NCBI GenBank assembly: GCA_017454745.1
Contig: JAFTCL010000069.1
Coordinates: 17,826 to 81,825, forward strand
Source of the DNA: Kiritimatiellia bacterium
GTDB lineage: Bacteria > Verrucomicrobiota > Kiritimatiellia > RFP12 > UBA1067
DNA length: 64,000 nucleotides
Direction of reading: 5' to 3'
The position numbers and the translations under genes are program-made. Below are positions 1,020 to 60,384 of this stretch, one piece after another. How positions within the stretch are numbered: the first letter of the stretch is position 1; the number at the start of each line of letters is the position of its first letter. The notes under the pieces were generated by a model. It was not told the DNA's origin and searched no databases. It saw nothing but the letters and a program-made list of their open reading frames with translations.

Positions 1020-1034
1020 AAAAGGGGTTATTCC

Positions 1035-3041: not shown

Positions 3042-3113
3042 TTTTCTCATTGATTTATGCCGCAGTTTGTTGTAAATTGCGGTGTTGTTCATCCAATAAG
3101 TTAAGGAGCACTT

Positions 3114-4094: not shown

Positions 4095-4107
4095 TCAGGA
4101 TTGCTAA

Positions 4108-18263: not shown

Positions 18264-18431
18264 ATGCTGCAGGAAGCACGGGACAAGATCGCGGAGATGG
18301 AAGAGACGGTCAATGACCTGAAGCTCCGCCGGTACGAGCTGAAGAAAGCCCGGCTGGCGACCCTCCACCGCTACGCTGAATTGACGGACATGAGCCAAGA
18401 CGTCTCTGCCGGGACATCCCCTACTCCATGA
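18264..18431 (+). CDS. Candidate small coiled-coil protein (55 aa) or 3' remnant of a lost gene
   Basis: MLQEARDKIAEMEETVNDLKLRRYELKKARLATLHRYAELTDMSQDVSAGTSPTP. Hand-counted third-position G+C is about three quarters (42/55), similar to bona fide genes here, and lower upstream of the ATG. It converges on paralog 2 and overlaps its 3' end by 11 nt. No recognisable family. Confidence 0.25.
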   Translation: MLQEARDKIAEMEETVNDLKLRRYELKKARLATLHRYAELTDMSQDVSAGTSPTP

Positions 18432-28226: not shown

Positions 28227-28767
28227 TATGCGTTTTCTCCTCAGCCATATCGTACCATTTGGGGTCGCGGCGCGGCGGGCATAACCGGCGCAAAAATTCC
28301 TGGGCCGCGTTTTTAGCCGTTTTTGTTCCGGAATCGGACTCAAACGGATTCTCCAGATCAAAGACTTCTTTAAACTGCTCGTCGATCTTCTCCGGGTCCT
28401 CTCCGGCCTCGATGCGGGCCATCGCCTCGCGCACGTCCGCGTTGAAGCGAAGCCCCCCCTGCTCCGCCATTTCACGCATCACCTTGACCGCCTCGGCGGG
28501 ATCGGCATCATCATCATTCATCGCGTCCAACCGCCGCCCCATCTTGCTGATCAGCTCTTCCTGCTCGGCCTGGGATATTTCGTCACGGTCGCCCCCCCCG
28601 AGGTCTTCGCGGTCCCCGGATTTGACAATGTGCGAAAAACTGGAAACTTGGCGCGAAAGTTTCCCGCCGCAGTCCGGGCATTCCGGCACCGTAACGGTAT
28701 CCACACGCTGGGAACGGAAGGTGTAAACGGTATGGCAGTTTTTGCAGTAAAACTCATACAACGGCAT
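28216..28767 (-). CDS. FmdB-family CxxC...CxxC zinc-ribbon protein with a long acidic C-terminal extension
   Basis: MPLYEFYCKNCHTVYTF...VPECPDCGG is the FmdB/CxxC_CxxC_SSSS signature. ATG at 28767 with GGGGGA upstream. The ORF-track 5' extension to 29004 overlaps rnc and is not used. Confidence 0.75.
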   Translation of the reverse strand: MPLYEFYCKNCHTVYTFRSQRVDTVTVPECPDCGGKLSRQVSSFSHIVKSGDREDLGGGDRDEISQAEQEELISKMGRRLDAMNDDDADPAEAVKVMREMAEQGGLRFNADVREAMARIEAGEDPEKIDEQFKEVFDLENPFESDSGTKTAKNAAQEFLRRLCPPRRDPKWYDMAEEKTHNDD

Positions 28768-43262: not shown

Positions 43263-46200
43263 TTACGGCATTTCGACCATAACGAGGAAGAAGCGGTAGT
43301 AACCGCTGTTGATCTCTTCCTCAGTCAACGGTTCCGCGGACCACTCGTCCGTGATTTCTCGTTTGCCGTAAATCGCGTACACGCGGCGGATTTGCCCGTC
43401 CTCGTTCAAGTTCGGCACCCATCCGATATACACGTTACCATCTTCCAAGGTAATCGTGGCATAGAAACGATCATTCATGTCCGTCGGAACGGTTCCCGCA
43501 ATAAACTCATCCAAAAGCGTTATCGGAGTTCCGCCCATACCCAACTTACCAGTCGGAGATGACATCGCGCGCAAATAATCGGTGGCGGTGGCCGTCGCCG
43601 GGTCAATCCCGCCATACCGTACCATGAATGCGACGAACGATTCGTCATAGACGGCCTTCTCGGCCTGAAGCGCCTTTTCGTCATCACTGGCGGAGGCGTC
43701 TTCCTCCCAACTCACGCAGTCGAGATACCCGGACGCTCCGTTTGCGGCAATGAACGCCACTTGAACGAAGCCGGAACCGAGAACGAGGGCCGACTCGCTC
43801 CACGTTTCCACCGAGCAGGTGAGCGCCTCCACCCCGTTCGTCTTAACGCAATACGTGCCGGCCGTGCCGACCTTCTTCCAGTGGAACCGCAGCGTTCCCG
43901 GACCGACCACCCGCACCGCGAGCGTCGATTCCTGATTGGCGGCGGCGGACGAGATCGCATAGTCATTCCCGTAACACGCCTCACCGGTCTGCGCCAGCCA
44001 AGGCTGCTCCGCAGAGGTCGTCCAGATGAGATTCGGCGCCTGTTCGTCCGTATCAAGCGCCTCTTCCAACGTATGGAACGGGAGCGCCTCGAACGTATAG
44101 GTGAACGCCTTGTTGACGGCAGCGTAACGGACATCGAGCGAACCGTCCGCGTAACCCGTCACGAGATCGTCCAGCCCGTCGCCGTTGACATCAACCGCAA
44201 CCGGCCGCGACCGTTCATACAGGTTCGTGTTGGCCGCCCCGGCGAGGGTGAAGGGTTTCACGTCATCCCACGTTCCCGCCTCATCGCCGACGTAAAGCGC
44301 GAGTCCACCCTTGCCGTGACCGGTCACCAGTAACGGCTGCCCCTCGTAGATCCAATCCCCGCTGAACGCGGCGGCGCTCCGACGCGGCAAAACAGGATCG
44401 ACGACCAGATCCGCCCCGGACCGGTTCTTCAACGCAGTGCCGTCCAGACGGAGGAGCCGCCCGTCATCACCGCCGATGACGAGTCCGCCGTTCCAGACGG
44501 AGAGAACGGCTCGTTCACGTCCGGCGTTCACCCCTTCCAAGAACACGCCGTTCCTGTAAACTTTCCCGTCGTAGGTTCCATAATAGAGATCGCCCCCGAC
44601 TTTGGCCACCGAGACGCCGAGGCAGTTGGATGCCACAACGTTGTCCACCACGCACGCGTCTTTCGTTCCTGCAAAGTCATAATGGTAGGCTTCGCCCTTG
44701 CCATTCTTCTTCACGCCGACAACCAGCCCGCCATCGACCGTCGCGGGCACGGCATATTCGCCGTCCGCATTGAACAAGGGATCAGGCTTGGAGAATCGGA
44801 TGAAGGAATCCAACTCCGAATTCCCCTTCAGCGGATTGCCCGCCGTATCAGCGATTAGTCCCGCGTCGAGGAAGAGGCGCAGTTTCCCAACCGGCAACGC
44901 CCGTTCAGAGCGCGTCCAGACGATTGCGTTCTCGCTCCCCCGCCACCTGAACTGCGAGCTGGCGGCGGCGACCTCTCCAGTCACGGTTCCAGACTCATCC
45001 AGAAGTTGCAGCCGGATCGCGCGGTCAAGCCATCCGCCCGCCTTCAGCGCACTCAGGTTCACCGCTTCGGAGAAGATAAACTTGACCTGCGAGGCACCAT
45101 TGCTGGCAACCGTCAGGGCACCCGTTTCGCCATAGACCTCCATGCCGTCGAAAACAATTTGGAGCAGTTCCGGCGGTGTCGTGTCCGGCGGCGTATAGGA
45201 CCACGATATGCCGCATGTGTCGGCATCGAACTCGCCTGCCAGCCCGGACGAACGCTTTTCAACCCGCGAAATGTCCAGCGTCACGGTATACGTCCCCCCA
45301 GACGCCGTAAGGGCATCAAGCCCGGCGACAGTCCAAACAAGATTCGACTCATCCGTAGTGATTGTCAACGCGTCCGGTTCGAACGCGATCCACTCCCGAA
45401 CGCCGTGCCGGATCGAGAACCACTCCGCCGCCACCTGTCGCACAGGATCGGAGAAGACAATCTGCACGTCATTCGTGAGTTTCCCTTTTCCGCCATCCGG
45501 GAATCCGGCGAAGGTGAACGAAAGCGGAATCGCATCAATGAAGAATTCCTTTTCACTGTCTGACGTTTTGCCGCTGACATTGGCGCACCTGACAACAAGG
45601 ACACCCCGTCCGACGGGAAGCGTAACCGCCTTTTCCAACGAGGTCTCACCCGATTCCGGATAGAAGGTTTCCATCAGCACATCTTCCGTACCCGCCGCGT
45701 CACGCGCAAGGATTGTCACCGCATAAACATCCGCCCCAAGCGTCCCTGTCACAGTCACGTCGCGTTGCCAGGTCACGCCATCGGTATCGTTCGTTCCATA
45801 ATCGGGCGTGAAGGCGAGATCGGCGATAACGGCGGGCGGGAGATCCCTGTATTCCCATGTCATATCGCCGGTCGTCCCGACACCCGCGTTACCGCTGGCA
45901 TCCTTTACGGTCGCGGCATCGAACGTCAACGCATACATGCCGTCCTGCGTGATCAACGCATCGATACCGGAGAACGTGAACTGCGTTTCGGAAACCTGGA
46001 CAACCTTGGCCGACGCGGGCAACTCGATCCGCGCGCCGTCGCGCGTCAGCGTGAATCCGGCGACGGTGACGCTCGAAGCGAGAATCGGCTTGGAGAAGGT
46101 TAACGTCCAACGATGCGATCCGAACTGCTCGCCCTCGTCCGTCAAGGTTGCAGTCGGCGCGTTGGAGTCAATCGTCACGGTTGATGAGAATATCGCCTGA

Positions 46201-49200
46201 CCGTACACGCCGGAAGCGTTTCGGATCGTGCGGGTATCGATCTCGATCGTATGGGTTGAGGCGGAGGCGTTTGCCGACAGGAGGGTTGCGCCGGATGTCG
46301 CCGCCGCGACCGCCGCATCGAGTCCCAAAATCCGGAAACTGGTGTTGGCCTTGTTGAGCGGGGTAATGGAGACCGCGGAATCGGACACCATGTACCCGTC
46401 CACCTTAATCGCATCCGCCGTGAAAGACGCGGGGTCGATGGCGGCGGCGAACTGCACCGTCACATTCGAAACGCTGTTGACCGTCGTGCCTTCCAGCCAT
46501 CCTTTGATGGAGACGACGGCCGGCTTCTCGATGATGTAGTATGTCCAGCCGATCTGCCTGCCGGAAGACTTGCCGAGCGTCCCGGAGAGCGAGGTGACGC
46601 CCGACGAGAAGACCTGGACGATGAACCGTCCTTCAAGCTCGGCGAAATCCGGGTCGAAGGTCAGGGTGTAGCGCGTGTTGGTTTCGTCTTCGGATGAAAT
46701 CGCCGCCACGCCGTTGGTCAGCTCACCCTGATAGCGGACCGTGATGTCATCCGGCGTGAACGACGCCGGATCGATCGCCTTGGAGAAGGTCACGACGAGA
46801 TTCTCCACCGGGTTCGTGACAAGCGCATCCGCCGTGACACCCTCAAACCCGGTGACTTCCGGCGCATCGGACGGTTTGGCCTTCAGCGTGACCGTGTAGC
46901 TCTTCGTACCGGCGTTCGCCTCGACGTTAAAGAGGTGGAGGTGGGTCTCGATTCTCGGATCCGCGCCATCCACAAACGTGCGGTCGGTGATCCATGCGTT
47001 CCGGACTGGGAGAACCGCGCCGGCCGCATCCACAACTCCGATGACCTCGTAGTCTTCCGCGCCGGGCAACTTGACCTTGGTGTAGTAGGGCCCGCTGCCG
47101 GGCAATGCGGTTGTGATCGTGACCGAACAGGTCATACCGCCTATGGAACCGGATACCGATGCGGTCACATCGTTCCGCACATCCAGCACCTCGCCGTCCG
47201 CCCGGTAAAGTTTGTCGGGATTGCCGTACCGGGAGTGGTCGGCCGTCAGAAACGCGGGCAACGCGTCGCCGACATCCACACTTCGGATCAGCGCATGGAC
47301 ATCGACACTGCGGATGAGCGAGGTATCGACGATTCCCTGCGAGTTCAAATGGGTGACGGAGGCCCTCATGCCGCTGAAGTGGCCCTGCAGCGTCGAGGTC
47401 AACCACCACTGCGCGACGGTACTCGACCGCGCCTCGATCGTCCCGAGGTTCACATCGTTCAAGCCGAGGCCCGCCGTCGCGCCGTTAAGCGCCGCCGCGT
47501 CAAGGGTGTAGTCGGAGAGCCGGAAGTCGATCATCAACCCCTTCTCGTTCTCCACGATCTCCGGCTGGGCGCTCTCGATCGTCACATTCTTCGCGTCACC
47601 GTAGCCCTCGTTGCGGATGAGGACCGCCAGCTCCGCCGGCATCGAGGCCTCGACAATGTTCTTCGTGAATGGATTGTCGGCATAGACATCGCGCTGGACG
47701 AAGTAGTCGAGGTAGAGCTGGGACATCGGGTTCACCTCCAGCGTCACCGGCAACAGTGTGATTGTCGCCTCTTCGCCGCTGTAGGGATCGCGGTAATGCA
47801 CCTTCCCGCCGAAATTGTAGGCGACGGGAACTTCCGGCGCGGCCGCGACGGCGGGAACGAACTGGACAATGGCTGTCCCCTCCGTCTTCGCCGCGACATC
47901 GTTCACCCGGACGATATTGCTGCCGTTCGCCTCAAGCGCTCCGCCGGACTTCGCGGAAATCTCGAAGAGGTCGTTGCAGGTATCGCCATCGGCGTTCGTG
48001 ATTTCCAGCTCCAGCCAGACATTGGTCATCGCCGTCGTGTCGTGTCCGTTGTAGAGCGTGAGCGTTCCCTCGAACGCTTCGCGCGTCATGGTGTAGGTCT
48101 GCGATAGTTTGAGCGAGACCTTCGCGCAGACGGCAGACGAGCTTTCCGTAGAGTCGAGCGCCCCATTGAGCCAGTCGATGAAGACAAGCGTGAACATGCG
48201 GGCGATATTGTCGCACGTATAGTTCTTGGCGAAGTCGCAGGCCGCCCTCGAGCGCTTGGCGCAGGCAAGAAGGACATCCAGGCGCACGCAGTCCGCCGCG
48301 CCAAATCCTTCGGTGTACGCGTCATCCGCGTCTTCGATTCCGTCCACCATGTTGTTCCAGCGCCTCAGGAAGACGGCAAGTTCCACGTCGCTCACGCCTG
48401 CCGGCGGCTGCAATGGTTCAAGGTCGTTCTGCACGAACCTGTAATCTTCATCCATATAAAGAACGAAGCGCGCCAGGAATCTCAACAGTTCCTCGTATGT
48501 CGCGTTCATCCATCCATCGCTATCGCCAAAGGTCTCATTGAGGAAGTATGCAAACGCGCACAAATAATCGAGCACATATGCGACCGTGTCGATTTGAAGG
48601 TTCTGCGTAAGCTCCGGCGACCACATCGCCACCGTCTCGGCGAATGTCTTTTCTGTAGCAAGAAGCGCCACGGCTCGCGAAGCGACCGAACGACTCGGTG
48701 ACGATGCCGCCGACGACGAAGCGGCGCCAGACCCGAACAATCCCAGCGAAGAACCCGGCAAGCCCGATCCGTTCATGATCGGCAGGCAAGACTTCTTGAC
48801 CGGATCGAATGCATCGTCTATCTCCTTGATCGTATTAAGCGAATCGACAACGCTTGCGACCTTCGAGTTCTTGACCGAGTCAGGGAACGCATCCAGCACG
48901 TCCTTGAGGGTCGAGATGCCGCTCTTGATCTTGTCGGCGTTCGAGGAATTGCTGTCCGTGACGGTCGTATAGAAATTCATGATGCTCCTGGCCGCCTTGG
49001 TTCCGGAAAGCACATTGCCGTATCCATCGCTGGATTCAAAGCCGATGTCGTCGAGCACGTTGGCAAGCGACTCGGACAGCTCGGCCGTCGAGTTGAGTTG
49101 ATCGGAAATGGTCGAATCGGCATTCACCATTTTCTCGTAGAAATCTCCCAACTTCTGGAAGGCGTCTATCACATTGCCCGCGCCGGGGACGGCCTTACCG

Positions 49201-52200
49201 ACCGACATAAGCTCAAGATCCACTGCCGTCTTGGCAAGATCCTTTAGACACGGCGTTAGCGTATTGGAGACACCCCCGTTACAGCCGTCCTCGAACACCC
49301 AGAAGTCGCCGCCGTTCATTCCCGGCGGGATATTGACCGACTGCTCCACGCCGTTGCGTGAAGGCTCGGACGAGCCTGTTCCGAGGTACCTGATCGATGA
49401 AGGCGCGGCACTGTGCGGGCAGTTGTCGCCATACACGAGCTGGCGCGGACCCCGCACCCAGCGGTCGCCGTTGCACTTGTACTTGTAGACATACTTCGCG
49501 TAGTCGGTGCAGGGGTTGGAATCCGTCTCTCCGCCTTGAAGCGGTCCTGCGTGTGACGCGCCCGTTCCGCTTCCCGCACGGGAGATCTGCTGCACAACCT
49601 CCATCCCCGCGCCGCCGTATACCGCCGCGACGAAGGCGGACATCGACGGAGAGGCCGAGTCTCCGCCGAGCGCATCCGCGATGGCAGCGTGCGACATTCC
49701 GGAGGACGTCTCACCTGAATGTCCCGGATCGGCGACATAGCTCGCATAGTCTCCCTCAATCGAGTACGGCAACCGGTGCAGAACCACCGGCACCGCACGC
49801 GCCGCGCCCGCCGCGAGCGAGAAACTGCCCGAAGGGTAGATCCACACGTAGCCGTAGAACGACGGAAGATCGAACGACACGTCATCGGCGCGGATGAGGC
49901 CGAGGTTCGTGAACACGGCCTTCGTCGCGTAACTCTCCCCCGGCTGGAGCAAGGGAATCCTGTCGATGAAGTCGAACTTCACCACCGGAACGGGGACAGA
50001 GGTCTCGAACTCAAGGACGAGATCGACCTGATACTGATCTTCGATCTCCGTGCGCGTGACGGTCCAGTTGGCCGTGATCGCCTGGTACTGGAGGAACGCC
50101 GTGACGTTTGCCATCCGCCCCGGGTTCACCTCAACGGCGGCCGCGTAGTTGCCGTGCTTCGCCGCCGTGACGACGAGTTGATACGTCCCCTCCGGGATCT
50201 CGTCCGCGACGAAGAGTCCGCCCGGACCGCTGTATCCGTCCGCAACGATCTCGCCCGTGTACGGATTGGTGATCTTGACATAGGCGCCTTCCAGATGCGG
50301 CGCCGATTCTAGATTGTAGGTGGCGTCATCCACGCAATCAACCGTGATGGATCCCGTCTCCTCGCTTACCGCCATGAAGGTCATCGGGATCGTGAGGAAC
50401 GTCTGCTCCTCTTCTTCACCCTTATTCCGTCCATTCACGGCAAGGCGTCCGGAGAAGTTACGGTTCAGTTCAATGTCGTTGCCGGGCGTAAGCTCCAGCG
50501 TGACCGTCACGGACTGGCTATTCGTGAGCGAGGCGGTCTCCGCCCCTCCGACAACATGAAGCCATTCGACATCCGGCGAGAGGACGCACACATCGACCGC
50601 CTCACCGTAACCGAGGTTCGTAAGGTTGAACGAGACGGTCCGCCGTTTCCCTTTCGTCATCGTCGCGGATATCGACGCGGGGGCGCTTTCCAGATGCGCC
50701 TTCTTGGCCTGCGAGTAGAAATAGACGGGGATCGCCAACTCCGCGCCCTCCGCGCTCGTGAGGCAAATGGAGAATTTCTCGTAGTTCTTCCCGATGGAAG
50801 CCTTCTCCGCCGTGAACACACACTGGAACTCGATGAAATCCCCGGAGGCGAGAATGCCGTTTGCGGGGATACCGAGGATTTCGAGTCCGCAACTCTCCGG
50901 CATCCCGATCGCCTCCACCGTCACGCCGGTCAAATCGATGCCGCACGGATTCCGGATCCGCGCCGACGCATTCGTCACGACGTCGCCGAGTGTCAAGTCC
51001 TCCACGTACCGTGACGAGGCGAGTCCGCTCAACACGAACCCCGCCACGTCGCATGTGGTCTGCACCGCCGCCGCACCGAGGCCCGGATAACTCGCGCCGA
51101 TGTTGAAACGGCCGACCTCGCCCGTGAGCGGCGTGTAACTCGCGGCGAACTCGCCATTCCCGTCCGTGACGGCGGTAACCATTCTCCTCAGATTCCCGGA
51201 GATAAGATAGACCTCCACCTCCACGTTCGCGGCCCGGGTCGTGCCGTTGGGTTTCACCGCCACGCCGGTCACGGTGATCTTCTCGCCGGTCGCGTAAACC
51301 GGCTTGTCACACGCGACCTCCTCCACCACATACGAGGGGCTGACCGTCAACGCATCACTCCACGCCGAGTTGTTTGCGTCATCCAGTTCGGTAATCGTCC
51401 CGTTCGGATCGATGACGACGGCGATGCGGCCGTTACCGACCGTCTCCGGCGCAGTCACCTCCGCCACCACGTCCAGTGTCCCGTTGGTCGCGACGCCCCC
51501 ATCGGTCACGCCGGACAGGACAAGATCGTTTGCCGTGTAACGCCACGTATCATCCCCCTTCACCCAATAGATCGAATACGGCACACCCGAAACCCGATTT
51601 TGGAAACCGATATTCCTCACCTCGAATCCGACCTCGACCGTCTCCCCGGCAATGATGCCAGACTCGCCGGTCTGGATATTCTGGACAGTGAAATCCGGCA
51701 GATTCTGATCGGTCACCAGCACCCAGGATGAACCGACCGCAAAACCGTCGGCGAACGCATAGACCGAAACAATCTTCGACCCGTCCTCCTCGCCGTCATC
51801 CAGCGTCCGAATCGTCGCTGTCGCCGAATTGGCGCCCGCCGGAATCGTGACGGTTTCCGGAAGCGCGATCTCCCCCGGCCCGTCATGCATAAGCGCCACC
51901 GTCACATCCTCACTGACCTGCGTCGAATTGGCGCGGACCGTCAGAATACCCGCATTCTCCAAACCCTCGCGCATCGTCATCGGCTCGACCGAGACGAAAA
52001 GCGCCGGCCCGTCATTGTCGGTGATCACCAGTGTCTCCGACAACGCGCCCGTATCCGCCGGCGGCCACGAACAGCCGCACGAGTCGATGCGGATCGCCGC
52101 GTTGATGGTCACCTCCCGCGCACCGCCATCCTCCATCTCTTCATTATCGACCACGCCGATGGCGAAGCGGACGGACATCGTGTTCGCCGGAATCGTAACC

Positions 52201-55200
52201 GAACCTGGCAGGATCACGGCATTCTCCTCGCTCGCGGTGAGGTAGACCGTAATCGCCTTCTTCAGCTTCTCCGGATCGTCATCCGTCCGTTCAATCACCG
52301 CGTAAACCGCGTTCAGCCCGGCACCCTCCGAAACCGCCTCCGGTGAAAGCGTGAACGCGACACTGGGGATGTCATCATCCTCCAGAATGAAATCGTACTG
52401 CGCACTCTCGAATCCGCTCGCCGACGCCCGGAGCCGCAACGCCGCCGCCAACTCGCTTGACGTGTCGTTCACCGACGCGAAGGAAAACTCGGCGGATTCC
52501 TCGCCCGCCGCCAGCGTGATGGATGACGGATAGGTGAACTGCGACGTGCTGACCCCGCTCAGATAGACCGTCAGGCTCTTGTCCGAAACCGCCGCCGGAC
52601 GTGAGACGCGGATCGTGAGATTCGTCCCTTCGGTAAATGCGTTGGTCGCCACGCCGATGACGTCAATCGTCAACGCGGGAACCTCGTCATCCACAATCGT
52701 CAACGCCCGCTGAACCGCCGCAAAACCGTCCGCCGTCGCCGTGACCGCAACCGCCCTGTCACCGTCAACCGCGCCGTTATCCGCGACATTCACGTAGAAT
52801 CCCGCCGTCGCGTTGCCCGCGCGGATCGTCACACACTGCGGCATATTCGTGATCTGCGCGGCGGCATCCCCCGCCACCGCGAGCGTGACCTCAAGCGCCG
52901 TATCCCGACCGCCGCTCCGCTTGACCTCGCCCCTGATCGAACCGCCCTCGCGGATGGTGTCACTCAACGAAAGGGTGAGTTTCCCGTTCAACGTCGCGGA
53001 CCCGCTCAACGCCTCATGCGGACACTCGTCCTTCTGGATGACCTCGCCGTCGGTGTCAAGCCGGACCATCGCCTGGACAGCGCCCGAAAGGTCGATCGTG
53101 TCGGGAATCATGACAGTGAACACGCGCACCGACGCGGCATTCGTCGAGATATCCTCCGTCGCCCGCCAGCTCTGGAGTCTCACGCACCCCGTCCCGTTTG
53201 TCAGCCACAGCTGTTCCACCCATGGCGAAAATGCGGCGGCATCCCCCCGGTTCGTGACGACGTATGTGAAGGCCGCCGCCTCGCCGGGCGTAAGCGTCGC
53301 CGGAAGCGAGATCTCCTCGACCGCGAGATCGGGCAGGTTCACCTCCGTACGTCCCTCCGCCTCGTGGATACCGATGTCGGGACAGATGCCGCGTCCGTTC
53401 GGCTCGCCGACGGCGACGACATTCGTGGACGCCATGCGCGCGCTGCCGAAGTAGTCCGTCTCGGGCGCGTACTGTCCGCTACCCGCGTCCACCGCCGGCG
53501 AATCCGCCGCAATTCGGTAGAAAGTGTCCGCCAAAAACTTCGGGGCGCCTGCGATATTGCCCCCGCCGTAATTCGCCGCAGTGAATCTGCAATCGGAATC
53601 GAACAGGCTGTATTTGAAATTTCCCCGCGAACCCGCATCCGCGCAGCCGGATACGATGGTGTTGTAGGCCAGCGCGGAGTTGTTGTCCATCGCCGTCCCG
53701 CAATCGTCGATGACACAGTTGTAAAGCCGTATCTCGCCGTTCCAGTTCGCGGAGGAGACGCCCATCTCACTCGCACGGAGGACGCTGTTCGTCGCATAGA
53801 CGTAGGTGCCGCAAATCGCGCCGTTCCCAGAGTTCTGCACCGTCACGCGGTCGAGGTCGATTCGCGCGCCGTAGCCGTAGATCGAACCCGTCCCGGACTT
53901 CCCGCCGCCGTATTCGACTGTCGCGCACCGGAGAGTGACGCGGCCGCTGTTGCCGCCGATGAACTCCCAGTCACCGGCCGACTTCGTTTCGGCGACGGAC
54001 GTGAAGATGACGGGATTTTCCAGCGTTCCCGCCGCGACGATCGAACCGGAATTCTCCACCACAAGCGACGCTCCCTCGGCGAAACGGATTTCCGCGCCTG
54101 CCTCGATTGTCAGCACCGTGGACGATCCGCGGACCTTCAGCGGTGCCAGAATCTGGTACGGAACGCCCGCGCTCCACGTGACGGACTCGTTGATCGCTCC
54201 GGACTGTCCGACGCTGCCGTCGTCCATGAGCGTCATCACGCTGAACGAATTCCACGGATACGTCGTGGCATCGAATCCCGTCGCTCCCTCGCAGATGTAG
54301 AACATCGCGTCAGAAGGCAGGTATCTGAACGCATCGCCGCCGACCGTCGGTGCCTCGGCCGACGTGAACACGACACTTTTCAACGATGAACAATTATAGA
54401 ACGCATAGTTGCCGATGTTCGTCACCGTGTTCGGCACGATGACCGAGCAGAGGTTGGTATTGCTGCCGAACGCCCATTCGCCGATGTTCCCCAAGCAGCC
54501 GTCATCCGCAAGGTCAACCGTGCGGAGGTTTTTGCAGTTTTCAAACGCACTCCTCGCGAGTTCGCTGACACCGGAAACTGCCACGTTCTGTATAGCCTTA
54601 CCAGTGAAACCGGAAACGCGGGTATTCCCGTTACCGACGATGACGAGCGACACCCAGTTCGTCTGGCCGCCGAACACGCTGCCGTCAATCGTCCCGTCAT
54701 TTCCGTGCCAAATGACCTCCCGGATCGACTCGCAGTCGTCGAACACCCGACTACCGACATTCGTCACGCTCGAAGGAATTTCCACGCGCTCAAGCGAATG
54801 GCAGTACTGGAAGGCGTTGTATCTGATCGTCTCGACACTCGTTCCGATCACGGCGTTCGTCATCGCGTAGCAGTCGTAGAACGCATAGCTACCGATGTTC
54901 GTCACCGTGTTCGGCACGGCGACGGAGTAGAGATTGGTATTGCTGCCGAACGCCCATTCGCCGATGTTCCCCAAGCAGCCGTCATCCGCAAGGTCAACCG
55001 TGCGGAGGTTTTTGCAGTTTTCAAACGCACTCTTCGCGAGTTCGCTGACACCGGAAACTGCCACGTTCTGTATAGCCTTACCAGTGAAACCGGAAACGCG
55101 GGTATTCCCGTTACCGACGATGACGAGCGACACCCAGTTCGTCTGCCCGCTGAAGATGCCGCCGGAGATCGAGTCCACATTCGCGGTGATCGTCACATTC

Positions 55201-55997
55201 GACAGGCTGTCGCAGTTATTGAAGGCGTTGCCGCCGATGTTCGTGACGCTGTTGGGGATGACCACGTTTCCAAGGTTCCGGCAGTAGTTGAATGCACCTG
55301 ATCCGATCGACGTGACATGCGATGAGGCGGAAAGCCCCGGCGGCTCGGTGAACGAACATCCATAGAATGCGCTGTTCCCGATGATTTCGAGCGCATCGTC
55401 CTCGAACACGATGTCCTCAAGATTCGGATAGTTGTAGAAACAGTCGGTGCCAAGTTCCCTCACGCCGCTGATGCGGATGTGGCGCGGACGCTGGGCATAG
55501 CTGCTGTAGGAGTGGGCAAGGCGGGTGTTGCCGTTGCCGGATATGACGAGCGTCTGGAAGTTTTCAGATTGTGTCGGGAACATCCCGAGGTCGATGACAT
55601 CCGCCTGCGCGAGAATGACCGCATTCGTGATCCCAGAGCAGGAATGGAACACGTTGTCGGCGAGGTTCGTGACACTGGCGGGAATGAGGATGTCACCAAT
55701 CCCGTGGCAACTGTCGAACGCCCGACTCCCGATCTTACGGATCGTGTCGGGTATTTGGAAGGTCTTAATGTCTGGTTTACCTGAAAATGCGTTGTTGCCG
55801 ATCGCGGTAACGCTATACGTCACGTCATCTTTTTCGACTGATGACGGCAATATGAGCGATTCTGGGACCGTACCGGAAAGCCCCGTAACCGTGGCCTCCC
55901 GCATCGTCTCATCGTAATTGAAGTTAAAGACAAAATCATCACCGACCGCCAGTTTGGCAACAACCAAAACAAGCACGAACAACACATTTCTTTTCAT
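43263..55997 (-). CDS. Giant (4,244 aa) secreted multidomain surface protein
   Basis: Single uninterrupted ORF. I prefer ATG 55997 (GGGGAG RBS, signal peptide MKRNVLFVLVLVVAKLAVG). Domain order, with approximate coordinates:
- BspA-type LRR region, about 54230-55900 (SVTAIGNNAFSG..., VTNIGSYAFYDC).
- Beta-helix, about 53460-54200 (NSGNGAICGTYVYATNSVL...NCVIDDCGTAMDNN).
- CARDB-like modules at about 53270-53345 and 51600-51710.
- Four Calx-beta-like modules, about 51700-52990.
- Carboxypeptidase-regulatory-like module, about 50110-50300.
- Unassigned central region, about 47270-49760.
- Repeated SbsA/Big-like Ig modules, about 44830-46880 (VTFSKAIDPASFTPDDITV).
- FG-GAP-like region, about 44130-44780 (VDVNGDGLDDLVTGYADGSLDV).
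- C-terminal jelly-roll plus tail, 43263-44100. Confidence 0.85.
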   Translation of the reverse strand: MKRNVLFVLVLVVAKLAVGDDFVFNFNYDETMREATVTGLSGTVPESLILPSSVEKDDVTYSVTAIGNNAFSGKPDIKTFQIPDTIRKIGSRAFDSCHGIGDILIPASVTNLADNVFHSCSGITNAVILAQADVIDLGMFPTQSENFQTLVISGNGNTRLAHSYSSYAQRPRHIRISGVRELGTDCFYNYPNLEDIVFEDDALEIIGNSAFYGCSFTEPPGLSASSHVTSIGSGAFNYCRNLGNVVIPNSVTNIGGNAFNNCDSLSNVTITANVDSISGGIFSGQTNWVSLVIVGNGNTRVSGFTGKAIQNVAVSGVSELAKSAFENCKNLRTVDLADDGCLGNIGEWAFGSNTNLYSVAVPNTVTNIGSYAFYDCYAMTNAVIGTSVETIRYNAFQYCHSLERVEIPSSVTNVGSRVFDDCESIREVIWHGNDGTIDGSVFGGQTNWVSLVIVGNGNTRVSGFTGKAIQNVAVSGVSELARSAFENCKNLRTVDLADDGCLGNIGEWAFGSNTNLCSVIVPNTVTNIGNYAFYNCSSLKSVVFTSAEAPTVGGDAFRYLPSDAMFYICEGATGFDATTYPWNSFSVMTLMDDGSVGQSGAINESVTWSAGVPYQILAPLKVRGSSTVLTIEAGAEIRFAEGASLVVENSGSIVAAGTLENPVIFTSVAETKSAGDWEFIGGNSGRVTLRCATVEYGGGKSGTGSIYGYGARIDLDRVTVQNSGNGAICGTYVYATNSVLRASEMGVSSANWNGEIRLYNCVIDDCGTAMDNNSALAYNTIVSGCADAGSRGNFKYSLFDSDCRFTAANYGGGNIAGAPKFLADTFYRIAADSPAVDAGSGQYAPETDYFGSARMASTNVVAVGEPNGRGICPDIGIHEAEGRTEVNLPDLAVEEISLPATLTPGEAAAFTYVVTNRGDAAAFSPWVEQLWLTNGTGCVRLQSWRATEDISTNAASVRVFTVMIPDTIDLSGAVQAMVRLDTDGEVIQKDECPHEALSGSATLNGKLTLSLSDTIREGGSIRGEVKRSGGRDTALEVTLAVAGDAAAQITNMPQCVTIRAGNATAGFYVNVADNGAVDGDRAVAVTATADGFAAVQRALTIVDDEVPALTIDVIGVATNAFTEGTNLTIRVSRPAAVSDKSLTVYLSGVSTSQFTYPSSITLAAGEESAEFSFASVNDTSSELAAALRLRASASGFESAQYDFILEDDDIPSVAFTLSPEAVSEGAGLNAVYAVIERTDDDPEKLKKAITVYLTASEENAVILPGSVTIPANTMSVRFAIGVVDNEEMEDGGAREVTINAAIRIDSCGCSWPPADTGALSETLVITDNDGPALFVSVEPMTMREGLENAGILTVRANSTQVSEDVTVALMHDGPGEIALPETVTIPAGANSATATIRTLDDGEEDGSKIVSVYAFADGFAVGSSWVLVTDQNLPDFTVQNIQTGESGIIAGETVEVGFEVRNIGFQNRVSGVPYSIYWVKGDDTWRYTANDLVLSGVTDGGVATNGTLDVVAEVTAPETVGNGRIAVVIDPNGTITELDDANNSAWSDALTVSPSYVVEEVACDKPVYATGEKITVTGVAVKPNGTTRAANVEVEVYLISGNLRRMVTAVTDGNGEFAASYTPLTGEVGRFNIGASYPGLGAAAVQTTCDVAGFVLSGLASSRYVEDLTLGDVVTNASARIRNPCGIDLTGVTVEAIGMPESCGLEILGIPANGILASGDFIEFQCVFTAEKASIGKNYEKFSICLTSAEGAELAIPVYFYSQAKKAHLESAPASISATMTKGKRRTVSFNLTNLGYGEAVDVCVLSPDVEWLHVVGGAETASLTNSQSVTVTLELTPGNDIELNRNFSGRLAVNGRNKGEEEEQTFLTIPMTFMAVSEETGSITVDCVDDATYNLESAPHLEGAYVKITNPYTGEIVADGYSGPGGLFVADEIPEGTYQLVVTAAKHGNYAAAVEVNPGRMANVTAFLQYQAITANWTVTRTEIEDQYQVDLVLEFETSVPVPVVKFDFIDRIPLLQPGESYATKAVFTNLGLIRADDVSFDLPSFYGYVWIYPSGSFSLAAGAARAVPVVLHRLPYSIEGDYASYVADPGHSGETSSGMSHAAIADALGGDSASPSMSAFVAAVYGGAGMEVVQQISRAGSGTGASHAGPLQGGETDSNPCTDYAKYVYKYKCNGDRWVRGPRQLVYGDNCPHSAAPSSIRYLGTGSSEPSRNGVEQSVNIPPGMNGGDFWVFEDGCNGGVSNTLTPCLKDLAKTAVDLELMSVGKAVPGAGNVIDAFQKLGDFYEKMVNADSTISDQLNSTAELSESLANVLDDIGFESSDGYGNVLSGTKAARSIMNFYTTVTDSNSSNADKIKSGISTLKDVLDAFPDSVKNSKVASVVDSLNTIKEIDDAFDPVKKSCLPIMNGSGLPGSSLGLFGSGAASSSAASSPSRSVASRAVALLATEKTFAETVAMWSPELTQNLQIDTVAYVLDYLCAFAYFLNETFGDSDGWMNATYEELLRFLARFVLYMDEDYRFVQNDLEPLQPPAGVSDVELAVFLRRWNNMVDGIEDADDAYTEGFGAADCVRLDVLLACAKRSRAACDFAKNYTCDNIARMFTLVFIDWLNGALDSTESSSAVCAKVSLKLSQTYTMTREAFEGTLTLYNGHDTTAMTNVWLELEITNADGDTCNDLFEISAKSGGALEANGSNIVRVNDVAAKTEGTAIVQFVPAVAAAPEVPVAYNFGGKVHYRDPYSGEEATITLLPVTLEVNPMSQLYLDYFVQRDVYADNPFTKNIVEASMPAELAVLIRNEGYGDAKNVTIESAQPEIVENEKGLMIDFRLSDYTLDAAALNGATAGLGLNDVNLGTIEARSSTVAQWWLTSTLQGHFSGMRASVTHLNSQGIVDTSLIRSVDVHALIRSVDVGDALPAFLTADHSRYGNPDKLYRADGEVLDVRNDVTASVSGSIGGMTCSVTITTALPGSGPYYTKVKLPGAEDYEVIGVVDAAGAVLPVRNAWITDRTFVDGADPRIETHLHLFNVEANAGTKSYTVTLKAKPSDAPEVTGFEGVTADALVTNPVENLVVTFSKAIDPASFTPDDITVRYQGELTNGVAAISSEDETNTRYTLTFDPDFAELEGRFIVQVFSSGVTSLSGTLGKSSGRQIGWTYYIIEKPAVVSIKGWLEGTTVNSVSNVTVQFAAAIDPASFTADAIKVDGYMVSDSAVSITPLNKANTSFRILGLDAAVAAATSGATLLSANASASTHTIEIDTRTIRNASGVYGQAIFSSTVTIDSNAPTATLTDEGEQFGSHRWTLTFSKPILASSVTVAGFTLTRDGARIELPASAKVVQVSETQFTFSGIDALITQDGMYALTFDAATVKDASGNAGVGTTGDMTWEYRDLPPAVIADLAFTPDYGTNDTDGVTWQRDVTVTGTLGADVYAVTILARDAAGTEDVLMETFYPESGETSLEKAVTLPVGRGVLVVRCANVSGKTSDSEKEFFIDAIPLSFTFAGFPDGGKGKLTNDVQIVFSDPVRQVAAEWFSIRHGVREWIAFEPDALTITTDESNLVWTVAGLDALTASGGTYTVTLDISRVEKRSSGLAGEFDADTCGISWSYTPPDTTPPELLQIVFDGMEVYGETGALTVASNGASQVKFIFSEAVNLSALKAGGWLDRAIRLQLLDESGTVTGEVAAASSQFRWRGSENAIVWTRSERALPVGKLRLFLDAGLIADTAGNPLKGNSELDSFIRFSKPDPLFNADGEYAVPATVDGGLVVGVKKNGKGEAYHYDFAGTKDACVVDNVVASNCLGVSVAKVGGDLYYGTYDGKVYRNGVFLEGVNAGRERAVLSVWNGGLVIGGDDGRLLRLDGTALKNRSGADLVVDPVLPRRSAAAFSGDWIYEGQPLLVTGHGKGGLALYVGDEAGTWDDVKPFTLAGAANTNLYERSRPVAVDVNGDGLDDLVTGYADGSLDVRYAAVNKAFTYTFEALPFHTLEEALDTDEQAPNLIWTTSAEQPWLAQTGEACYGNDYAISSAAANQESTLAVRVVGPGTLRFHWKKVGTAGTYCVKTNGVEALTCSVETWSESALVLGSGFVQVAFIAANGASGYLDCVSWEEDASASDDEKALQAEKAVYDESFVAFMVRYGGIDPATATATDYLRAMSSPTGKLGMGGTPITLLDEFIAGTVPTDMNDRFYATITLEDGNVYIGWVPNLNEDGQIRRVYAIYGKREITDEWSAEPLTEEEINSGYYRFFLVMVEMP
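54398..55147. repeat. Near-identical tandem duplication inside the LRR region of the giant gene (two ~270-bp copies at an exact 480-bp offset)
   Basis: 54398-54667 matches 54878-55147. The core 54454-54665 vs 54934-55145 (212 bp) differs at a single position (54553). At the protein level: QTNWVSLVIVGNGNTRVSGFTGKAIQNVAVSGVSELA(K/R)SAFENCKNLRTVDLADDGCLGNIGEWAFGSNTNL, twice. Confidence 0.95.
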
Positions 55998-56030
55998 GCG
56001 GCACTCCCCTGAGGCTATTAAGAACAAAAA

Positions 56031-58236: not shown

Positions 58237-60384
58237 TTAGCGAGAAGTGACGACCATGCCTTGCCGCGCCAACTGCTTGAGTTGGTCAATGTCCAAACGC
58301 CCGCCGTGCGTAGTATGCCGTTTGGCGCAGAAAGGAGTGTAAAGGTCAACGGTAGGAACGCCCATCATATCGGCGACGCGGATTACCACTTCGGCAAATT
58401 TTCGTGAATCCGCCGCGTGTTCGCAAGGATGCTCGCCGGAAACGCAACCGCAATCCAAAAGCACGTCCAACGGCGGCGGGACCACTAAAACAAGCGAAGG
58501 CGATTCAATCGGGAGCGAGGACATAAAACCGGCCATAGCCGCTACGCGCCGCTCGAAATGCGCCAAATCCGCCCAATCGTCGACCTTTGGCAACGGCGCG
58601 TAAAAAATTGGACGCCCCTGGGGAATTTTTTTTAATTGCAGGAATGGGCACAACCACGCAATGCCGGTCATCGTCGCCTCGCCGGGATTATCCGACAAAT
58701 CCACCAGTGATACCGATTGGGCAACATCCGGTATCTGCCCTAGCGCCATAAAAAGTCCCTCGTCGGCCAACACGGGAACTGCGTCGGATTCGACGATCTT
58801 GGCGTTTGATTTTTCCTTGGGCATCCCTTTGGAGGCTCGCGGCACCACCAGCGAGATAAAATCCTCCCCAGCCCTTAAAGTTTCGCCGGAAACCGTATCG
58901 GGCAGCACATCGTACGGCTCATGCATCAACCGCAGCCGGCCTTGGCTCAACTGTACCTGCGCATGGGTTACGGTCCATGCCAAAGAATCCACATCAAGCG
59001 CGGACAACTGTCCAAGATACACCCGCGCCCAACCGCGATCGGTCGTCACCATCTCGGTGATATTGGACATCGAACCGTCGCGGTAAAAAACCGAAGCGTT
59101 GATGTTGAACCGCAGACCGTCACGTGCGGTGGTGCGCATCCTGATCATCGGGCGAAACCGGTCGGCGTCAGAACAAATCGGCGGTACGTCAACAATGCGC
59201 GACGATATCCACTCTTCGGAAAATGCCGGTTTGTCGCAGGACAAATCGAATTCGTAAACCGACTTCTGTCCGCCCCCCAACAGCTCCGATGCCACTCTCT
59301 GCGGCATCCGGCTACCCAGCAGAACCGTATTGAAAGTTTCCCCGCTTCCCACCAGTTTTCCGTCTATAATCCAGCGGCAAACCGAATTGGTCCCCCAACT
59401 TGCCCCGGCGTTCTTCAACGTGCATGGTACAAACAGTTCATCGGTTCCCGCGAAACGGTACGGCCTCCCGTAATCCGCTTCGGCGAAAGCGTGCACCAAT
59501 GAATCTTTCCGCTCCAGCCGGTAGGCCCGGAAATCTCCGCCGGTTACCGTAACTACCTCGTTCGCCAAAGTTTCCGCGCCGGGATGTTTCCAAGCCACGC
59601 CGGTATCTATCTCCTGACGGCACACGGTCATCACCCGCAGACAATGCAGACCGGCCGTGAGCGTTATCTTCTTTCCCTCGGTCCACTGTTTGGTGTTCAT
59701 TCCGGCCGGATGGGACATCCGCTCTTTGCCGTCGAGAACCAACCACACCGGGGATATGCCGGCCAATCCAAAAACCAGTTCGCAATTTTCCGGCACCATC
59801 AGCCAGGTCTGCATCCGCACCCAGTGGTTTTTGCGAGTCCAGTCGCCGCGGAACCAATCTTTGAAAGTCAATCGAGCGCCATCGAAATTGGCCACCGCAA
59901 AGTTGCGCGGCGGCCGGTCGAAACGGCCCTCCAAACCGCGCAGCTGCGCCAAGGTTTCAGGGAAATCCATACCGCCGGTACGGGCAGCCAGACCGCTGAC
60001 CGGCAACGGGTCGGCCGCATCGCCGAATCCGACCTCCACAGGCTTCTCCCCCGGCAAAGGGTAGATCCGAACGTTCTGGGCGTTCTTTAACGGAGTGGCG
60101 TTTACCAGAACGGACAACTTTCCTTCAGCCTTCCACAATACCTTAAGCTGCACCTCCCCGTCTTTGTAGAAAGCCTTGAGTGCCGACACCGGCTTGCCAT
60201 CCGTGGTATCCGGAATCGACACCATGAAATAATTGTCCGTGTCCTTGGCCACCGAAAACCGCTCCACCGCCGCATCCACTGCCCATGCCGGGCGGGGACG
60301 CGGCTCAGCGGCCATTGCTGCGGCGGCAGTCAGTGAAAATGCCAACGTTACGCCAAGGGAAAAAACGTTGCCGTGCCCAATCAC
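58237..60384 (-). CDS. Exported hypothetical protein with a PA14-like module and a degenerate SGNH-like C-terminal region
   Basis: I prefer GTG 60384 (GGAGG 7 nt upstream, overlapping the upstream TAG by 1 nt) followed by a signal peptide (GNVFSLGVTLAFSLTAAAAMA). The block FDGARLTFKDWFRGDWTRKNHWVRMQTWLMVPENCELVFG is PA14-like. Function unknown. Confidence 0.65.
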   Translation of the reverse strand: MIGHGNVFSLGVTLAFSLTAAAAMAAEPRPRPAWAVDAAVERFSVAKDTDNYFMVSIPDTTDGKPVSALKAFYKDGEVQLKVLWKAEGKLSVLVNATPLKNAQNVRIYPLPGEKPVEVGFGDAADPLPVSGLAARTGGMDFPETLAQLRGLEGRFDRPPRNFAVANFDGARLTFKDWFRGDWTRKNHWVRMQTWLMVPENCELVFGLAGISPVWLVLDGKERMSHPAGMNTKQWTEGKKITLTAGLHCLRVMTVCRQEIDTGVAWKHPGAETLANEVVTVTGGDFRAYRLERKDSLVHAFAEADYGRPYRFAGTDELFVPCTLKNAGASWGTNSVCRWIIDGKLVGSGETFNTVLLGSRMPQRVASELLGGGQKSVYEFDLSCDKPAFSEEWISSRIVDVPPICSDADRFRPMIRMRTTARDGLRFNINASVFYRDGSMSNITEMVTTDRGWARVYLGQLSALDVDSLAWTVTHAQVQLSQGRLRLMHEPYDVLPDTVSGETLRAGEDFISLVVPRASKGMPKEKSNAKIVESDAVPVLADEGLFMALGQIPDVAQSVSLVDLSDNPGEATMTGIAWLCPFLQLKKIPQGRPIFYAPLPKVDDWADLAHFERRVAAMAGFMSSLPIESPSLVLVVPPPLDVLLDCGCVSGEHPCEHAADSRKFAEVVIRVADMMGVPTVDLYTPFCAKRHTTHGGRLDIDQLKQLARQGMVVTSR

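Follow-up and report, generated by a model that had tools for sequence, protein, structure and literature searches.

Kiritimatiellae and their relatives are abundant glycan degraders in the rumen, the gut and marine sediment. To our knowledge, it is not known how these bacteria export their many large surface proteins and how they hold them. The T9SS is, as far as we know, considered to occur only in Bacteroidota and allied lineages. Structures of its sorting domain (CTD) are present in the PDB, and a T9SS CTD of type B is found in SprB of Flavobacterium. RTX adhesins are secreted without a Sec signal; they have RTX repeats and, at the C-terminus, a T1SS signal. PEP-CTERM-type sorting is used in lineages that include Verrucomicrobiota, and the TSP3-type motif binds calcium in bacterial TSP3 repeats. 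BspA of Tannerella forsythia is a CTD-dependent T9SS cargo (PMC8869499).

Here, we describe a single gene of a rumen Kiritimatiellae bacterium for a 4,244-residue secreted protein, which is located in a window of 64 kb (the whole stretch of DNA that was analysed). We consider it fairly probable that this protein is a giant cell-surface fibre or adhesin and that its C-terminal tail is a new module for sorting or anchoring that takes the place of the T9SS CTD. This proposal draws on the position of the tail and on module swapping. An adhesin or scaffold function had already been put forward in the initial annotation and is still the most reasonable reading; the role of the head is assigned by analogy with BspA-type proteins.

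Gene and domain architecture

The complete coding sequence is located on the minus strand (43263..55997), the strand being absent from the initial annotation, and involves 4,244 amino acids plus a stop codon at 43263-43265. The mass of the protein is about 445 kDa. On this strand the stop-free reading frame covers 43263..56027 (4,254 codons counted from TTG), and the ATG at 55997, which follows AGGGGAG at a spacing of 6 nt, is the likely translation start. A search for records identical to the 4,244-aa product retrieved none. The following features were assigned:

55941..55997, minus strand: Sec-type signal peptide, aa 1-19, MKRNVLFVLVLVVAKLAVG (sequence and hydropathy; predicted cleavage site)
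54318..55940, minus strand: BspA-type LRR head, aa 20-560 (PF13306 match, self-similarity)
54366-54665 and 54846-55145, within the LRR region: two direct repeats of 300 nt, 93% identical, 480 nt apart
53340..54209, minus strand: probable right-handed beta-helix, aa 597-886 (sequence pattern only)
52998..53339, minus strand: CARDB domain 1, aa 887-1000 (HMM match aa 889-991; PF07705, 22.9-24.0 bits, cut-off 22.7)
51699..52991, minus strand: four beta-sandwich-like repeats of ~110 aa, aa 1003-1433 (internal similarity, E down to 9e-11)
51342..51698, minus strand: CARDB domain 2, aa 1434-1552 (HMM match aa 1434-1544; PF07705, 29.6 bits, cut-off 22.7)
49773..51341, minus strand: run of Ig-like modules, aa 1553-2075 (weak MG2/Big and CarboxypepD_reg matches)
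48141..49772, minus strand: Cys-rich, fast-evolving insert of ~540 aa, aa 2076-2619 (identity drop relative to the flanks)
46872..48140, minus strand: most conserved block, aa 2620-3042, starting with AVCAKVSLKLSQTYTMTREAFEGTL (family signature)
44796..46871, minus strand: stalk of six Big-like modules divided by eye, aa 3043-3734 (Big_5 and weak Big matches)
44106..44795, minus strand: FG-GAP-like region, aa 3735-3964 (FG-GAP_3 in one stretch, 25.8 bits, cut-off 26.9)
43701..44045, minus strand: beta-sandwich or jelly-roll, aa ~3985-4099 (seven strands in a low-confidence model)
43266..43646, minus strand: tail module, aa ~4118-4244, with a recurrent core at aa ~4138-4244 (profile matches, model)

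Behind its LRR head, the protein carries a long series of beta-sandwich modules, about 20 or more in number. The N-terminus (MKRNVLFVLVLVVAKLAVG) combines a K/R n-region with a strongly hydrophobic h-region and carries no lipobox Cys, which agrees with the Sec signal peptide proposed initially. Behind the signal peptide, hydrophobicity nowhere reaches the level of a typical membrane helix (the best 19-mer has a KD of 1.59). The BspA-type LRRs were also confirmed: LRR_5 (PF13306) matched aa 20-560 in four stretches with an E-value of 3.5e-88 (292 bits, cut-off 27.7). Within this head, an internal duplication of ~160 aa is recent, the stretches aa 241-379 and 401-539 showing self-similarity at 67-100%.

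Several module names proposed in the initial annotation stood only in part. Both CARDB copies exceeded the Pfam cut-off. The four repeats between them are real, but the Calx-beta label found neither an HMM nor a PDB match. Calx-beta (PF03160) gave no match in these repeats at E<=1, a search in which very weak matches may be lost to the HMMER filters, and the PDB profile search with aa 1000-1435 returned chance-level matches only and no Calx-beta. A carboxypeptidase-regulatory-like fold had been suggested, and a corresponding match (CarboxypepD_reg) was seen in the Ig-like run; it is weak, however, and lies, like that of MG2, below the Pfam cut-off. An alpha-2-macroglobulin-like architecture, which the MG-like domains, the insertion of a helical domain into a beta-sandwich and the sequence GVEQ had brought to mind, was rejected: MG2 remained sub-threshold (20.5 vs 32.8 bits), no A2M/TED match was obtained in Pfam or the PDB, and GVEQ lacks the thioester Cys of CxEQ. 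For the stalk, Big_5 exceeded its cut-off at aa 3295-3374 (38 bits) and two further Ig-like modules were matched weakly, the weak matches in the stalk involving Big_5, Big_12 and Big_13. Big_5 is confirmed, but the proposed number of at least eight modules is too high when compared with the six divided by eye, of which modules 1 and 2 are the only pair with detectable mutual similarity. An FG-GAP match was also obtained, but it stayed below the cut-off.

Relationship to a family of giant proteins

The core of the protein (aa ~890-3600) is homologous to a widespread giant-protein family, which in Bacteroidota ends in the T9SS sorting domain and for which neither Pfam nor NCBIfam contains a model. 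The family carries the signature KLSQ[TK]YTM..TREAFEGT and is recognised by a collinear CARDB-block-Big core with a Cys-rich insert between its halves; this arrangement was found here. Homologues were retrieved with a 283-aa query from within aa 2080-3040, and for the conserved block 105 metagenomic relatives were found at 35-51% identity. Coverage in 79 homologues defined a shared core from at least aa 1200 to 2075 and from aa 2500 to 3600, aa 1200 being the limit of the fetched flanks in this analysis. Locus L017, which is collinear from aa 888 (32% identity over 1,201 aa, 40% over 458 aa), takes the core back to that position, so that the part conserved across phyla starts with CARDB domain 1. 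The segment aa 1551-2050 aligned in 84-94% of the 79 distant homologues, and this share decreased to 48% at aa 2051-2100. When compared with the orthologues, the Ig-like run (aa 1553-2075) exhibited 75-94% identity with a peak of 87-94% at aa 1801-1900/2000.

The C-terminus was visible in 70 metagenomic relatives. Here, we found Por_Secre_tail (PF18962) in 56 of them and the tail of our protein in three. The initial annotation had considered that homologues might turn out to belong to an adhesin family that is well described and whose anchor is known. Half of this was borne out. A known anchor was indeed found, namely the T9SS CTD, but the family that carries it is the one that lacks a Pfam or NCBIfam model. 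The FG-GAP-like region is restricted to the tail-bearing clade (coverage in distant homologues 3%). In this clade, the T9SS sorting domain is replaced by the FG-GAP-like region, the jelly-roll and a tail of ~110-125 aa. The protein is informative because the known anchor of its family is exchanged here for the tail, and this exchange within one homologous giant family points to an unknown way of surface display.

The C-terminal tail module

The tail reads as quoted in the initial annotation, and its consensus is ..YP.F..KFG.DF..AL...TGK.D..G....VWQDYVAGTDPTD....F.A.I....G.P.V.W.P.LN.....R.Y.V.GK..L.D..W.......Y.FFKVTVEMP. A search of the library with the tail profile yielded 1,337 representatives (protein clusters) at E<=1e-3 and 558 at E<=1e-10. 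Within the 64-kb window, no other tail-bearing gene was detected. Our protein scored 116 bits against the ~105-aa module profile, the first row of which is this very copy, and pairwise identities with 38 distant members ranged between 28 and 40%. Neither Pfam-A 2025 nor NCBIfam 20.0 contains a model of the tail, and our literature searches yielded no account of this module or of T9SS-like export in Kiritimatiellae. The structural model of the tail is confident (pLDDT 88.6) and involves three helices, a hairpin, a helix and then a four-stranded sheet, but no fold match was obtained for it in the PDB. The recurrence in other proteins that had been proposed for the tail was strongly borne out, and the position is nearly always C-terminal; the taxonomic range, given initially as PVC, is confirmed for Kiritimatiellae MAGs only. 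Also in line with the initial annotation, LPXTG, PEP-CTERM and T9SS CTD motifs are all missing from the protein.

We next consider 163 tail sequences (148 new matches and 15 orthologue fragments). In 150 of them (92%), the tail ends no more than 12 aa from the C-terminus. The remaining 13 copies (~8%) are internal; behind them come a linker, which is either acidic or rich in Gly, and additional domains. Signal-peptide-like N-termini were present in 91 of 130 complete-looking tail carriers (about 70%). Apart from the tail, the more than one thousand carriers are unrelated. The cargo is diverse but LRR_5 dominates (49 of 74 proteins), and CHB_HEX_C_1, Flg_new, BACON, FGE-sulfatase, Peptidase_C10 and Ntn hydrolase domains were also observed.

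According to the scheme that we favour, the tail would direct the protein to the cell surface after Sec export or would hold it there. It may be recognised by a machine of the outer membrane that exports or attaches proteins, or it may dock onto a receptor at the surface. Because 13 of the 163 copies are internal and precede further domains, a docking or binding module fits better than a strict secretion signal. The LRR head, perhaps together with the beta-helix, would then be placed at the far end of the stalk, where the head may bind a partner such as a plant or host glycoprotein or another microbe. In a more far-reaching version, the tail might be the signal by which cargo is recognised and attached in a hitherto undescribed pathway of Kiritimatiellota (perhaps also of related PVC lineages) for secretion across the outer membrane or for anchoring at the surface. 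Such a pathway would be the functional equivalent of that using the CTD, with hundreds of cargo proteins, among them BspA-type LRR adhesins; the giant protein would represent a natural sorting-domain swap on a homologous passenger. This version is put forward tentatively, as a possible scheme and not as a probable one.

Alternatively, the tail could be a ligand-binding, calcium-binding or oligomerisation module that is terminal by coincidence in many extracellular proteins, and display or release of the protein would proceed otherwise, for instance by T2SS transport of the folded protein. The internal copies with domains behind them are compatible with this explanation, and so is the half thrombospondin-type-3-like motif AGTDPTD within the tail. 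Moreover, a T2SS pseudopilin gene adjoins one tail-bearing gene, and dedicated machinery was not found. No candidate partner gene is conserved beside the tail-bearing genes. However, a location at the extreme C-terminus in 92% of the copies, over very different cargo, is not what one expects from CBMs and similar binding modules, which are normally less position-restricted, and in one homologous protein family the tail sits where the T9SS CTD sits. We regard this alternative as rather unlikely. If the tail only binds, the new domain family would still be useful, but ordinary. The locus provides a concrete handle on the export and retention of large surface proteins: a compact module of ~110 residues marks more than 1,300 protein clusters.

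Possible catalytic function

The beta-helix region (aa 597-886) had been labelled pectate-lyase-like. For this segment, no beta-helix, lyase or hydrolase HMM of Pfam matched even at E<=1, and the profile search with aa 597-890 against PDB sequences gave chance-level matches only. Since the pectate-lyase label has no HMM support, a catalytic beta-helix is unsupported. A choice_anch_Q (choice-of-anchor Q) match at aa 829-858, at the end of this region, reached 20.5 bits (cut-off 25). The C-terminal jelly-roll of the initial annotation is beta-rich in the model and showed weak Foldseek matches to CBM35/CBM6/GOLD (E 1e-3 to 1e-2). However, these matches come from a model of aa 3865-4244 that was built on a shallow alignment of close orthologues and reached a pLDDT of 47, with an unreliable FG-GAP part.

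One might assume that the protein mainly functions as enzyme or glycan-capturing scaffold, in which a beta-helix lyase or hydrolase and a CBM jelly-roll act together with the adjacent glycoside hydrolases. The window is in fact rich in glycan-degrading genes (GH78, GH3, GH2, GH43, fucosidase), and both the beta-helix-like sequence pattern and the CBM35/CBM6 resemblance would suit such a role. Nevertheless, we consider it quite improbable, because the HMM searches remained negative, because aa 597-886 have no sequence relative in the PDB and because the CBM-like match depends on the low-confidence model. Synteny with GH78 is retained in the closest MAG only and is lost in the other orthologues; for this reason, a conserved operon with GH78 was rejected.

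Conserved block and fast-evolving insert

The insert (aa 2076-2619) and the conserved block (aa 2620-3042) had both been overlooked in the initial annotation. They constitute two more uncharacterised elements that are shared across phyla. The block exhibits a mean column identity of 89% in the orthologues and spans ~420 aa; it has no Pfam match, and the profile of aa 2600-3045 matched PDB sequences at chance level only.

The insert diverges rapidly. Its identity to the orthologues is 43-71% at aa 2101-2300 and 23-54% at aa 2301-2600, whereas that of the flanks is about 75-94%. Both pS and pN are raised and a mosaic pattern was seen in the comparison with L003, a UBA1211 contig. The insert contains a conserved Cys motif (NPC..Y.KY.Y.Y.C.GDRW...DNCP...GVEQ.VNIPPGM.GG.FW.FE.GC.GG), which is followed by a low-complexity stretch and by a variable region with an RWNN motif; the variable part is probably alpha-helical. 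A Cys-motif insert between two conserved halves also occurs in the wider giant-protein family, and in distant homologues the insert is not alignable (median length 342 aa). No Pfam match was obtained, and the profile of aa 2140-2640 yielded only chance-level matches to PDB sequences. The insert may be an exposed variable region, which would be under diversifying pressure and exchanged by recombination. A diversity-generating retroelement seems an unlikely source of the variation, the variable stretch of ~500 aa with indels being unlike DGR targets.

Contiguity of the reading frame

The single uninterrupted 12.7-kb ORF of the initial annotation proved to be sound. At ~59% GC, the by-chance stop rate is roughly 0.033 per codon and according to our own arithmetic the probability of encountering no stop is about e^-140. 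In two independent rumen Kiritimatiellae MAGs, RUG10884 (L006) and RGIG5820 (L009), the orthologous frame contains no stop in the 3,713 aa that are available and is collinear with aa 505-4244 (67-70% identity), and this independently backs the contiguity. The dN/dS ratio is well below 1 over most of the gene. Among the distant metagenomic relatives, 78 of 80 loci have no stop anywhere in the 1,333 aa upstream of the conserved block, with stop-free lengths of at least 2,000-3,000 aa. Interruptions were observed in L008 (stop), L001 and L003 (N-gaps) and L016 and L017 (frameshifts). The pair of 300-nt repeats (54366..55145) is the only site at which the number of units could be wrong as a result of short-read assembly. 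An assembly artefact or a pseudogene-like chimera, for which these 93% identical repeats, the interrupted relatives and the mosaic pattern of the central region relative to L003 might be quoted, is hardly credible in view of a gene that is open here, in both independent MAGs and in 78 of 80 distant relatives and that shows such dN/dS values.

Comparison with known systems

PEP-CTERM/exosortase systems share with the tail that they represent a C-terminal sorting solution for many secreted proteins of a lineage. They differ in that our protein has no PEP motif, no C-terminal transmembrane helix (maximum hydropathy in the last 60 aa 0.18) and no basic tail, and NCBIfam sorting-signal models matched neither this protein nor the tail set. 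The RTX adhesins LapA and MpIBP and Flavobacterium SprB resemble our protein in their size of several thousand residues, in their long Ig-like stalk and, presumably, in a ligand-binding region at one end. In contrast to RTX adhesins, a Sec signal is present here and no RTX repeat (HemolysinCabind) was matched.

Dockerin/cohesin and SLH systems also involve a small module, which is mostly C-terminal and sometimes internal and is attached to many secreted proteins of one lineage, enzymes as well as binding proteins, that are not related to each other. The calcium-loop-like D-P-T-D motif of the tail is reminiscent of dockerins, but it occurs as a single motif and not as duplicated F-hand. Neither the Dockerin_1 nor the SLH model matched our protein or any member of the tail set, and no cohesin-like partner was found.

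The T9SS CTD differs from the tail in sequence (hhalign probability 0.1%), and its models PF18962, CHU_C (PF13585) and TIGR04183 matched neither this protein nor 74 tail-bearing proteins. The tail fold is without PDB match, and about 8% of the tail copies are internal. Within the 64 kb of the genome that the window covers, no T9SS gene was seen. T9SS CTD cargo and our protein share a Sec signal, a multidomain passenger and a folded domain of ~100 aa at the extreme C-terminus. The LRR head belongs to the same Pfam family as that of T. forsythia BspA, and 56 of 70 giant homologues of the core carry PF18962. Since BspA is a T9SS CTD cargo in Tannerella, the same class of cargo is found on the CTD in one phylum and on the tail in another. 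The job of the tail would be equivalent to that of the CTD in Bacteroidota.

Open reading frame and contiguity of the giant gene

The minus-strand frame of the giant gene is open from 56027 to 43263. Its first ATG (55997) lies 34 nt past the stop codon of the upstream gene and is preceded by AGGGGAG at a spacer of 6 nt; a start at this codon yields the 4,244-aa product that the initial annotation had proposed. By calculation the local base composition would give about 0.033 stops per codon and thus, chance cannot account for a frame that stays open for so long. The N-terminus (MKRNVLFVLVLVVAKLAVG/DD) resembles a Sec signal peptide, as had been suggested before, and has no lipobox. Hydropathy analysis revealed no typical membrane helix beyond the signal peptide (best 19-mer KD 1.59) and no hydrophobic character in the final 60 residues.

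To identify relatives of the giant gene, we carried out a pattern scan with one genome per species and found nine loci, all from Kiritimatiellae or "Verrucomicrobia UBA" MAGs of mostly rumen or gut origin. The closest relative (UBA1200) is 92% identical in the last 380 aa, and its genes downstream of the orthologue are 91–99% identical to those of the window. In RUG10884 and RGIG5820 no stop interrupts the orthologous frame along the 3,713 aa fetched, which are collinear with aa 505–4244 of the window protein (67–70% identity). Moreover, dN/dS is far below 1 across most of the gene. Thus, independent assemblies largely dispel the initial concern about contiguity. The sole assembly-sensitive spot is a 300-nt direct repeat pair (93% identical) inside the LRR region.

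Several other genes of the window were noted:
58237–60447, minus strand: ORF of 736 aa without Pfam match at E ≤ 1e-3; it lies two genes upstream of the giant gene and is flanked by a beta-lactamase-fold gene and a FAD-oxidoreductase/Golvesin_C gene
15042–18026, 18421–20928 and 25248–28475, minus strand: three large paralogous-looking proteins (835–1,075 aa) in a glycoside-hydrolase-rich region, with the hydrazine synthase alpha middle domain (HZS_alpha) as sole or main Pfam match; one also carries CBM_6
23857–24759, minus strand: PD-(D/E)XK nuclease-family transposase gene (PDDEXK_2) within the glycan-utilisation region

Domain content

The following segments of the giant protein were distinguished:
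aa 597–886: putative right-handed beta-helix by its look; the one database match is choice-of-anchor Q (20.5 bits)
aa 889–991 and 1434–1544: CARDB, Pfam match
aa 1003–1433: four repeats of about 110 aa
aa 1562–1637: MG2/Big-like, sub-threshold HMM match
aa 1902–1967: CarboxypepD_reg, sub-threshold HMM match
aa 2076–2619: fast-evolving Cys-rich insert
aa 2620–3042: most conserved block
aa 3295–3374: Big_5, Pfam match
aa 3890–3952: FG-GAP, sub-threshold HMM match
aa ~4118–4244: C-terminal tail

The BspA-type LRRs (292 bits) and CARDB modules of the initial annotation were confirmed by Pfam. From its series of SbsA/Big-like modules one Big_5 was recovered, and additional Big_5, Big_12 and Big_13 matches stayed below threshold, as did those behind its carboxypeptidase-regulatory-like and FG-GAP labels. 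The four modules described as Calx-beta-like are real repeats according to internal self-similarity, but no Calx-beta HMM matched them even at E ≤ 1 and a PDB search with them found nothing. For the proposed jelly-roll, a poor model shows mostly beta structure and a weak similarity to CBM35/CBM6. About a quarter of the protein (aa 2000–3040) had no match in Pfam, NCBIfam or PDB sequences.

The tail is a widespread C-terminal module

A word-based search with the tail retrieved 15 close fragments only, whereas a profile search without word index yielded 1,337 matches at E ≤ 1e-3 and 558 at E ≤ 1e-10, counted as representatives of 50%-identity clusters and extending over window aa ~4138–4244. The recurrence of this module, proposed in the initial annotation, is thereby borne out. 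Among 163 sequences examined (148 new matches, 15 orthologue fragments), the distance between the end of the tail and the C-terminus is at most 12 residues in 150. A signal-peptide-like start was seen in 91 of 130 complete-looking carriers and BspA-type LRRs in 49 of the 74 scanned. Other carriers involve CHB_HEX_C_1/Fn3_assoc, Flg_new, BACON, FGE-sulfatase or Peptidase_C10 domains, and an Ntn-hydrolase-type protein of a second Kiritimatiellia MAG bears the tail as well. The module itself is not represented by any Pfam or NCBIfam model. An AlphaFold2 model based on a diverse 39-sequence alignment (pLDDT 88.6, pTM 0.75) places three helices first, then a hairpin, a helix that spans LLDEFIAGT and finally a sheet of four strands with one short helix. 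Foldseek found no match for this model in the PDB (best E 0.23, TM 0.24) and profile–profile comparison with type IX secretion (T9SS) C-terminal sorting domains (CTDs) was negative.

In thirteen carriers the copy is internal, and an acidic or Gly-rich linker connects it to additional domains. In one such subfamily (P0022, P0050, P0057, P0069, P0137 and others) the tail ends with ..FFKVTVNI/M, and the conserved linker EETPDTEEELKFGDG leads into further LRR or Fn3-like domains. A T2SS pseudopilin gene (T2SSG) flanks the gene of a tail-bearing 866-aa Flg_new protein, and 5 nt downstream of the latter follows the gene of a conserved 214-aa protein without Pfam match; this arrangement recurs in three contigs (L013, 5946–6695 and 9770–10414; L014; L015). 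In the fragment P0015 (245 aa, ENA) a HisKA-like N-terminal part (precomputed PF00512) is joined directly to the tail; its contig measures 1.9 kb, and the gene is probably chimeric or wrongly called.

Relatives of the giant protein and their C-termini

When aa 2618–2900 were used as query, we obtained proteins of 38–65% identity, including one from a Bacteroidales MAG. Two loci consist of strings of frameshifted genes collinear with window aa 1043–3608 (L016) and with aa 888–2075 and 2583–3033 (L017). Both strings are closed by Por_Secre_tail, and the Cys motif, the RWNN motif and the block start VCA..TREAFEGTL are recognisable in both. In these Bacteroidales homologues (L016, 9000–11500; L017, 8700–11400) protein similarity runs on across many small same-strand ORFs, which reflects either assemblies rich in indels or genes in decay.

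We scanned metagenomes with the block and detected 105 relatives. Eighty loci were kept, and 78 of them show an uninterrupted frame across the full 1,333 aa that precede the block; these are thus all giant proteins. Their common core corresponds to window aa ≤1200–2075 and 2500–3600. The insert is unalignable among distant members (median length 342 aa vs. 544 aa in the window protein), and aa 3600–4244 are common to only two other loci when the close orthologue L018 is left out of the count.

For 70 relatives the stop codon was within the fetched DNA. Por_Secre_tail closes 56 of them and CHU_C also matches 21, whereas the tail closes three (L018, L019, L083). Thus, one homologous passenger bears either C-terminal module; judged from these sequences, most lineages carry it with a T9SS sorting domain and a Kiritimatiellae clade with the tail. 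A minority of the core family (L055, L073, L056, L058, L025, L066, L096) ends with neither (e.g., ...RIITQQLPN, ...NNGVSSRVPK), and such members may carry further alternative C-terminal modules.

A variable insert between conserved flanks

Sliding identity against the orthologues revealed a sharp trough and flanks of about 75–94% (aa 1800–2100, 2600–2900), the most conserved parts of the protein; both features had been missed by the initial annotation. Identity is 43–71% at aa 2101–2300 and lowest at aa 2301–2600 (23–54%, even vs. UBA1200). In the trough region a conserved Cys-rich motif comes first, followed by a low-complexity stretch and a variable segment that is probably helical and contains a conserved RWNN motif. 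In comparison with UBA1200, pS increases from 0.46 (aa 2101–2300) to 0.63–0.73 (aa 2301–2600), with flanks mostly at 0.2–0.45. The opposite trend was observed for UBA1211, with 0.03–0.05 at aa 2301–2600 (window ~48198–49097) and 0.15–0.47 in the flanks and the rest of the gene. This mosaic pattern suggests that the insert may have been exchanged by recombination; either this is the case or the UBA1211 contig, which has an N-gap at the insert boundary, is chimeric.

Functional interpretation

The observation behind the initial annotation is confirmed and its interpretation is borne out in part. Judged by sequence comparison, on which all functional statements here are based, the giant protein is best read as a long stalk that would present an LRR head, and the adhesin interpretation of the initial annotation is retained. 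Sequence comparisons gave no evidence supporting catalysis. Glycoside hydrolases are abundant around the giant gene, but this linkage is kept only in the nearest MAG. Giant mosaic surface proteins are nothing unusual in such bacteria; the value of the find lies in the tail, the anchor swap and two uncharacterised core elements. The tail constitutes a large, undescribed, confidently folding module family, and the natural anchor swap suggests what it may do. Three findings point to a role in surface sorting or anchoring: the tail sits almost always at the C-terminus of varied Sec-exported proteins, BspA-type LRR proteins prevail among this cargo, and on a homologous giant passenger the tail takes the place of the CTD. 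In view of the internal copies and a TSP3-like DPTD motif, the tail may instead be a module for docking or binding and no strict secretion signal. As for the sorting or anchoring role, the BspA-type LRR class is CTD-dependent T9SS cargo in Tannerella (PMC8869499).
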